From an uncultured Clostridium sp. (GTDB lineage: Bacteria; Bacillota; Clostridia; TANB77; CAG-508), in NCBI GenBank assembly GCA_946411515.1, contig CAMKEH010000005.1, forward strand, positions 14,442 to 78,441: DNA of 64,000 bases, written 5' to 3'. Position 1 is the first letter of the stretch. Each line of letters begins with the position of its first letter. This document shows, in pieces, positions 7,514-7,761 of the stretch. The translations under genes were made by a program, and so were the position numbers. A model generated the notes under the pieces. It was not told the origin of the DNA and did not search any database. It saw only the letters and a list, made by a program, of their open reading frames with translations.

Positions 7514-7542
7514 TTGAAAGTTATAATTAAATATTGTATAAT
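7514..7542 (+). promoter_or_regulatory. sigma-A type promoter TTGAAA-17nt-TATAAT
   Basis: TTGAAA at 7514-7519, a 17-nt spacer, TATAAT at 7537-7542. It is the only promoter-like element between uppP and the 7762 gene. Confidence 0.6.
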
Positions 7543-7576
7543 TTCTAATATAAAGATAAGGATAGGTAAAATACAA

Positions 7577-7645
7577 ATGATGGCAAACTATGAAACTGCT
7601 ACTACTCTAAGAGAGAGAGAGAGAGAGAGAGAGAGAGAGCAGTAA
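7577..7645 (+). CDS. candidate 22-codon leader ORF (MMANYETATTL(RE)5Q) that contains the (AG)15 tract
   Basis: ATG at 7577 and TAA at 7643-7645. Only a weak SD (AGGT, 9 nt upstream). Its coding status is a hypothesis. Confidence 0.3.
   Translation: MMANYETATTLREREREREREQ
7610..7639. repeat. (AG)15 dinucleotide microsatellite
   Basis: Thirty nt of uninterrupted AG repeat, read directly from the sequence. Confidence 0.95.
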
Positions 7646-7682
7646 TTTAAAAAATAAAATAATTATAAAAATTAGAAATAAA

Positions 7683-7733
7683 ACAAGACTAAGACTATCA
7701 TAAAAGATAGGTTTTTAGTCTTGTCTTTTTGTG
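7683..7733 (+). terminator. intrinsic terminator / attenuator hairpin upstream of the 7762 gene
   Basis: ACAAGACTA (7683-7691) pairs with TAGTCTTGT (7716-7724). An inner stem CTATC/GATAG adds to it. CTTTTTGTG follows. Confidence 0.7.
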
Positions 7734-7761
7734 CTTGCCAACAAAGGAGGAAAATATATAA

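Follow-up and report, generated by a model that had tools for sequence, protein, structure and literature searches.

The (AG)15 tract found within a short leader ORF, 122 nt upstream of a gene for a pilin-like leucine-rich repeat (LRR) protein, raises the question of whether expression of that protein could be switched by changes in repeat number. The window, by which we mean the whole 64,000-nt stretch of DNA that was analyzed, has a G+C content of 26% and belongs to a metagenome-assembled genome (MAG) of an uncultured gut member of the Clostridia (1.55 Mb, 65 contigs). A sequence-only reading of the window had proposed that the leader is a phase-variable attenuator, in which the repeat number decides whether a translating ribosome stops short of an intrinsic terminator or runs into it. 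Here, the leader was compared with its paralogs in the same genome and with its counterparts in near-identical strains, in relatives and in phages.

Anatomy of the leader upstream of the pilin-like LRR gene

The layout proposed earlier, consisting of a promoter, a leader ORF containing the tract, a hairpin with a U-run, a ribosome-binding site (RBS) and the LRR gene, was as claimed when the coordinates were checked. The features are as follows.

7514-7542, + strand: sigma-70-type promoter with TTGAAA (7514-7519), a 17-nt spacer and TATAAT (7537-7542); 11/12 matches
7564-7567, + strand: weak Shine-Dalgarno (SD) sequence AGGT, 9 nt 5' of the leader ATG
7577-7645, + strand: leader ORF in the present frame, 22 codons, MMANYETATTL(RE)n-Q, ending at TAA 7643-7645; predicted OFF
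7610-7639, + strand: (AG)15 tract (TRF), putatively hypermutable, inside the leader ORF and 3' of the promoter
7643-7650, + strand: double-stop motif TAATTTAA, which supplies one TAA 3 nt past the tract and, in a second frame, another 8 nt past it
7640-7703, + strand: third-frame leader extension SSNLKNKIIIKIRNKTRLRLS, read when n = 13, 16, 19 and so on, ending at TAA 7701-7703 in the hairpin loop; predicted ON
7683-7724, + strand: predicted terminator hairpin with 17 pairs, a 2-nt bulge and a 6-nt loop
7725-7733, + strand: terminator U-run, CUUUUUGUG / CTTTTTGTG
7743-7750, + strand: RBS of the putatively regulated gene, AAAGGAGG, with GGAGG at 7746-7750; start codon ATG 7762
7762-9303, + strand: putatively regulated gene, 513 aa, with a prepilin-like N terminus (..NGG followed by ITLIALVITIIVLLILAG) and BspA-type LRRs

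The promoter is the top-scoring site within positions 6500 to 9600 (3.1 kb), with a predicted transcription start at about 7549. Between it and the gene, where no other promoter had been noted, a weak promoter-like match (9/12) occurs at 7673-7701, and such matches were found at chance level (23 found, 24.3 expected). The leader SD is as weak as had been said, and the paralogous leaders have a stronger SD at the equivalent place (GAAGGT, GGAG). With 15 repeats the leader indeed stops at TAA 7643-7645, which is 37 nt rather than 38 nt before the hairpin, and the stop of the other short frame was found at 7648-7650 rather than at 7647-7649, 32 nt before the hairpin. Reading of the frames bore out that the addition of one AG unit, or the loss of two, opens the leader up to TAA 7701-7703 in the loop, 58 nt before ATG 7762. 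The LRR gene remains intact in all three leader frames, the tract being located in a separate ORF and the gene having its own ATG and its own RBS outside the hairpin.

The hairpin had a predicted free energy of -18 kcal/mol (z = -4.5), and none of 200 shuffled sequences was equally stable. Its bulge explains its absence from the output of a simple terminator scan. When the whole leader was folded, the hairpin was the sole stable element, and the leader as a whole was more stable than its shuffles (z = -3.7). The tail, TTTTTG(Y)G(Y)TT, was found again at many loci. The hairpin was also considered as the terminator of the upstream BacA gene, which is unlikely, as it is 234 nt past the BacA stop codon, behind the promoter, and moves with the leader cassette elsewhere.

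The 513-aa product matched PF13306 (BspA-type LRR; E value of 1.8e-30) and also PF13855, and it is probably a surface adhesin. In addition to 33 pilin-like genes, 10 of which are preceded by a repeat-bearing leader, the genome has genes for a prepilin peptidase (Peptidase_A24) and for two T2SSE ATPases. Spore genes of the dpaA type adjoin the locus. In other samples (ENA contigs L196-L198), the gene behind dnaE codes for a 507-aa protein with 90% or more identity to the window LRR protein; this gene is preceded by an ordinary promoter and lacks a repeat leader.

Some further features of the window and of the MAG were observed. The window contains a 33-nt tandem repeat at 48129-48298 (5.2 copies, 91% identity) and, at 21909-22167, a long repeat region that is rich in A/G and codes for Lys/Glu. 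Five contigs of the MAG (C22, C36, C40, C48 and C58) end in (TGGGGAT)4-7 or start with (ATCCCCA)n, in a telomere-like orientation. One of these, C36 (4.5 kb), carries such a cap at either end and has a single ORF of 1290 aa that by eye is like a eukaryotic P-type Ca-ATPase; C40 resembles it (1214 aa), and C48 is calpain-like by eye. Judged by these features, the five contigs look like ciliate gene-sized macronuclear chromosomes that were binned into the MAG.

A three-frame rule across paralogs and relatives, and the spread of the cassette

A genome-wide search for (AG)8 returned six tracts, and reading upstream of all 33 pilin-like genes added four further leaders in which (AC)n replaces (AG)n. 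All ten tracts are sense oriented and are located directly upstream of or within a pilin-like gene. Chance could be excluded as the cause of this arrangement, because at 26% G+C the 1.55 Mb scanned contains no other non-AT dinucleotide tract of at least 6 units, and all ten have the same context and orientation.

The ten loci were also alike in how their frames end. Immediately 3' of the tract, NNNTAATTTAA closes two of the frames, with stop codons at distances of 3 and 8 nt, the motif TAATTTAA or a close variant of it being present at 10/10 loci in the genome and at most of the related loci described below. The third frame stays open for 52 to 103 nt and, at nine loci, ends within a hairpin with a T-run behind it. 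The same three-frame rule is obeyed at two loci whose hairpin (GAGGGATAGA...TCTACCTCTC) is unrelated in sequence, and the ten loci together represent two repeat units and no fewer than two unrelated hairpins. The structure of the hairpin is itself conserved, since three base pairs showed compensatory changes among seven paralog hairpins. The exception is the locus on contig C11, which is without a hairpin and whose third frame reads SSNLKNTKG followed by VTLIALV..., that is, the pilin-like protein itself. Because the frame that enters the terminator at nine loci makes the protein at C11, the long frame was taken to be the ON frame in both designs. Four of the ten loci are at present in this frame.

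Further features were seen at pilin-like genes of the genome. On the reverse strand of contig C17 (near position 8972 of the reversed contig), the RBS of a pilin-like gene that neighbors the two T2SSE ATPase genes includes a run of G6, and (AT)5 is found upstream; this may be another slippage site. Two pilin-like genes, near 180919 on C2 and near 12362 on C20, break exactly at ...LILA-CGG-A, where their paralogs read LILAG.

To count such leaders in other genomes, a pattern comprising the left flank and six repeat units only was used, CTT N7 TA N0-1 (SA)6. Within the genus, 140/338 genomes matched, with about 536 loci and a maximum of 32 per genome; the reversed control gave 2 matches. In the order, as sampled, the matches came from 129/401 genomes, representing 28/49 genera and 4/5 families. 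A stricter pattern applied to 185,579 species genomes matched only MAGs of uncultured gut Clostridia, and the cassette pattern was also present in 52 IMG/VR viral contigs. A pattern that demanded NNNTAATYTAA past the tract under-counts the family (6/61 genomes), and a T4-anchored hairpin search, which misses terminators with TATTTGT-type tails, was replaced for the counts given here.

For 122 related loci the full context was available. These were picked by the left flank, blind to the sequence past the tract, and comprised 84 loci of the terminator type, 26 in-frame fusions and 12 others. At 84/84 terminator-type loci one frame reached to within 15 nt of the hairpin, compared with 54 (maximum 69 in 20,000 simulations) when the spacers were shuffled, although the loci are paralogs and orthologs, so that these statistics and their P-values overstate independence. 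Inheritance alone is nevertheless an unlikely explanation, because both the spacers and the hairpins are diverse. Exactly one frame reached the hairpin at 78/84 loci. The stop codon of this long frame was in the 5' arm at 27 loci, in the loop at 10 and in the 3' arm at 32, with 6 more located no further than 15 nt upstream of the hairpin and 9 beyond it. The other two frames stopped 3 to 15 nt past the tract, a median of 35 nt 5' of the hairpin. The proposal of three length classes, only one of which opens the path into the hairpin, was therefore found to describe a kept design rule, at 10/10 paralogous loci and at all 84 terminator-type relatives. The genes downstream of the 84 loci were pilin-like in 36 cases, encoded another protein with an N-terminal hydrophobic segment in 24 and were of other kinds in 10; for 14 loci the gene was not found.

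Conservation to the left of the tract was of a different kind. A core, GAAAGCCTTG..GTA, precedes the repeat; its nucleotide sequence is conserved throughout the order and in the phages, third codon positions included, and its codons (AGC, CTT) are atypical of a genome of 26% G+C. The leader peptides are conserved only in this cassette core, and in the window the left flank itself is divergent (7592-7609, GAAACTGCTACTACTCTA). A search for a role of the left flank as an anti-SD or pairing element found no consistent partner. Shared descent and spread of the cassette may be enough to explain the conservation; a function of its own is also possible.

The position next to bacA was examined by synteny in 150 genomes of the genus. 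BacA was about 70 to 82% identical, and the intergenic region was not kept. Only one genome of this set, G116, which represents another species of the genus, has a cassette after BacA. On its contig C8 (L041 / L058), bacA is followed by a leader with (AC)9, then by a hairpin and a gene of the pilin-like kind, so that the site was kept and the repeat unit differs.

Tract-length variation and the proposed switch

Length heterogeneity in related strains had been named as a check on the switch, and it was found. Comparison contigs were taken from other metagenome assemblies through the members of 90%-identity clusters of the downstream proteins and were 98.4 to 99.9% identical to this genome. At the window locus, the tract is (AG)15 here and (AG)17 in ERZ920179, ERZ1029115 and ERZ27280389, in which the 320 nt before the gene show no other difference; each assembly consensus gives the majority tract length only, and the comparison is one between strains. 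A fourth contig of this locus ends inside the tract. The two alleles seen at the window locus, 15 and 17, are both in OFF frames. A search of metagenome contigs with a locus-specific variable-gap pattern gave no match, and an exact look-up of the upstream BacA protein gave no further contig.

Other lengths were also found at the paralogs. At C2:160357, the tract is (AC)8 (OFF) here and (AC)9 (OFF) elsewhere, where it is the sole difference over 2,709 bp; (AC)10 puts the same leader into the ON frame, for which the gene caller of the source assembly has a 37-aa leader ORF. The C11 fusion has (AG)10 here and in one other sample, which is the ON frame and gives a 337-aa product, and in another sample it has (AG)15 (OFF), for which the gene caller gives a truncated product of 283 aa. 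C3:90504 has (AG)16 (ON) here and (AG)10 (OFF) in other assemblies. One phage locus represented by five viral contigs with identical flanks had 10, 14, 16, 16 and 17 units. An invariant tract length, which had been named as the result that would speak against a switch, was thus not what was observed, because near-identical contigs carry other lengths. The ratio of ON to OFF frames was 27:55 among terminator-type loci and 10:15 among fusions, and this ON share of about one-third is as expected from a freely drifting tract length.

The frame rule, the tract polymorphism and the precedent of Streptococcus gallolyticus (see below) support the attenuator reading, and we consider it likely that the region is a slipped-strand phase-variable switch operating through a leader ORF and an intrinsic terminator. 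In the proposed mechanism, transcription would begin at the promoter at 7514-7542, and ribosomes would start on the leader at ATG 7577 and translate across the (AG)n repeats. With an n mod 3 of 0 or 2 (15, 17), the ribosome would stop at TAA 7643 or 7648. As this is 37 or 32 nt before the hairpin, the hairpin should form and most transcripts should end at about 7733, which is the proposed OFF state. When n mod 3 is 1 (13, 16, 19), the frame would be open to TAA 7701-7703 in the loop, so that a ribosome on the 5' arm would block the terminator and RNA polymerase would read into the pilin-like LRR gene, the proposed ON state. Slippage of the dinucleotide tract during replication would flip the state in a heritable and reversible manner, and with ten loci switching independently, a mixed surface repertoire would be expected. 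We infer leader translation, termination at the U-run and frame-dependent read-through from the arrangement of these elements.

The efficiency of each step may be limited. Antitermination might be inefficient because the leader SD is weak (AGGT), and termination may be partial because the hairpin is A+U rich and is followed by a run of only five U. Ribosome-mediated antitermination requires that the ribosome closely trails the polymerase, and to our knowledge, such close coupling is not general in Firmicutes, as indicated by work on Bacillus subtilis.

In an alternative reading, the phase switch is real and acts after transcription, with translation of the long leader either stabilizing the mRNA or feeding the downstream RBS through coupling or reinitiation. 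In the phage contigs, 33/45 cassette loci are without a hairpin and have a long-frame stop that directly adjoins the next ATG or overlaps with it (TAATG or ATGA; IMG/VR loci L209, L214, L217, L220 and L222 are among the examples). Genome G039 has the same coupled arrangement, with an ATGA overlap, and these stop-start overlaps indicate that the cassette can work by translational coupling. At the window locus, however, the 58 nt between the long-frame stop and the ATG and the strong RBS outside the hairpin do not fit this arrangement, and in the relatives the hairpin ends a median of 60 nt before the start codon. Furthermore, a T-tailed hairpin with a free energy of -12 kcal/mol or lower was present at 87.5% of the 96 non-fusion loci (median of -21 kcal/mol), compared with 3% for shuffled and 16% for reversed sequences, despite hairpin sequences that are very diverse and unrelated; neither coupling nor stabilization would need such a structure. 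A post-transcriptional switch is therefore considered unlikely here.

It could also be argued that the tract is hypermutable with no effect on the LRR gene, the leader being the decayed remnant of a prepilin leader that was once in frame and the gene being expressed by constant read-through or from another start. In-frame fusions do exist (C11 and the 26/122 related loci) and could be ancestral, and the weak promoter-like site at 7673-7701 might serve as such a start. A remnant, however, would not be expected to keep a hairpin-entering frame at every one of the 84 terminator-type loci, nor to keep two immediate stops throughout the order, nor a good leader SD and ATG. Promoter-like sites with at least 10/12 matches were found 5' of 54/82 leaders and, in contrast, in the interval from the hairpin to the gene at only 2/70 loci. 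These data make an inert remnant quite improbable. Lastly, the stretch from promoter to terminator might be a small gene in its own right, with a repeat-variable small protein or an RNA of about 185 nt as its product and no relation to the downstream gene. This would agree with the complete promoter-to-terminator unit and with the leader fold that beats its shuffles, but it is very improbable given that a search of 7300-7900 against Rfam 15 (E values up to 10) found no match, that the leader peptides are unconserved beyond the cassette core and that the unit is always in sense orientation directly 5' of a gene for a surface, secreted or phage tail protein that has no good promoter of its own.

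Beyond the attenuator proposed for the window, the relatives and phages suggest a wider reading, toward which we lean slightly. According to this, the AG/AC leader would be a portable cassette, made up of GAAAGCCTTG..GTA-(NN)n and two staggered stops, that is found order-wide in low-GC gut Clostridia and in their phages and has three outputs, namely, terminator read-through, fusion to cleavable prepilin-like leaders and, in phages, translational coupling, with 10 to about 30 switching surface genes per genome. No larger simple sequence repeat (SSR) phasome is known to us in Firmicutes than these 10 to about 30 independently switching genes would represent. If this is true, the cassette could shape both host-surface variation and phage-host recognition. 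The bacteria probably show a stochastic mixture of adhesins to host immunity and to phages. For annotation, many of the "truncated" or "frameshifted" surface genes and the unannotated mini-ORFs in these MAGs would be switch states and not errors. For metagenomics, tract length could serve as a marker of strain and state, and the tracts break assemblies. The loci would also provide many natural variants for gauging the distance between ribosome and RNA polymerase in Firmicutes.

Comparison with known systems

Attenuators of the trp, pyrBI and erm types also make terminator formation depend on where a ribosome sits in a leader ORF. Those systems take their input from physiology, the ribosome being stalled at regulatory codons or by drugs, and usually have alternative antiterminators, whereas the switch proposed here would depend on a heritable frameshift and need no alternative hairpin; the leader fold has a single stable hairpin, and the leader peptides are unconserved outside the core. 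In Clostridioides difficile, an invertible leader element of cwpV forms a terminator in the OFF orientation. The likeness is that a clostridial surface protein would be phase varied through termination in its 5' leader. The difference is that cwpV relies on inversion by a recombinase and on no ribosome, whereas here the terminator is constant and its use would be set by the leader frame.

Classical phase variation by SSRs within the ORF, in the region of the signal or leader peptide, is known from the CTCTT repeats of Neisseria opa and the poly-G tract of pilC. There, as in C11 and 26/122 related loci, slippage of a 5' repeat shifts the frame and the repeat-encoded residues fall in a cleaved leader. 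The tract is within the regulated coding sequence at C11 and, at the window locus, in a separate 22-codon upstream ORF.

A phase switch that uses a leader peptide and a terminator is known to us from one experimental system only, the pili of S. gallolyticus. A literature search found no paper describing the AG/AC cassette. In the pil1 and pil3 loci of S. gallolyticus, GCAGA repeats are present in the leader peptide, and phase switching was shown by genetics; the OFF stop is 39 bp before the terminator, the ON stops are within or after it, and deletion of the terminator locks expression ON (Danne 2014, PMC3894217). The window locus, with OFF stops at 37 and 32 nt and an ON stop in the loop, is a close geometric match. 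Both have an SSR whose unit is not a multiple of three in a leader ORF between a promoter and an intrinsic terminator, and in both, short leaders end about 28 to 39 nt 5' of the hairpin (OFF) and long leaders reach into or past it (ON), the target is a surface appendage and several loci with the same repeat are present per genome. All sequence-level features of the pil1-type class were found at the window locus, namely, an SSR in a short ORF, a predicted terminator, frame-dependent stops and repeat variation between strains. There is no sequence homology between the two, and the shared class is a mechanistic one.

The differences are several. The repeat unit is AG or AC here and GCAGA in pil1/pil3; with a two-nucleotide unit, ON corresponds to one of the three frames here, compared with two of three there. 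The compact double stop TAATTTAA within a conserved cassette is found here, unlike in pil1/pil3. Type IV pilin-like proteins and other secreted proteins take the place of sortase pili as targets, and the cassette, unlike that of pil1/pil3, also occurs as an in-frame fusion and, in phages, as a coupled upstream ORF. Copy number and taxonomic spread are far larger, with ten loci in this genome and up to about 30 in relatives. The type of mechanism was already known, and what is new is the dinucleotide-repeat version of the pil1/pil3 logic. These comparisons suggest that the same logic evolved with dinucleotide repeats and became a standard, reusable part in an order of uncultured gut Clostridia.
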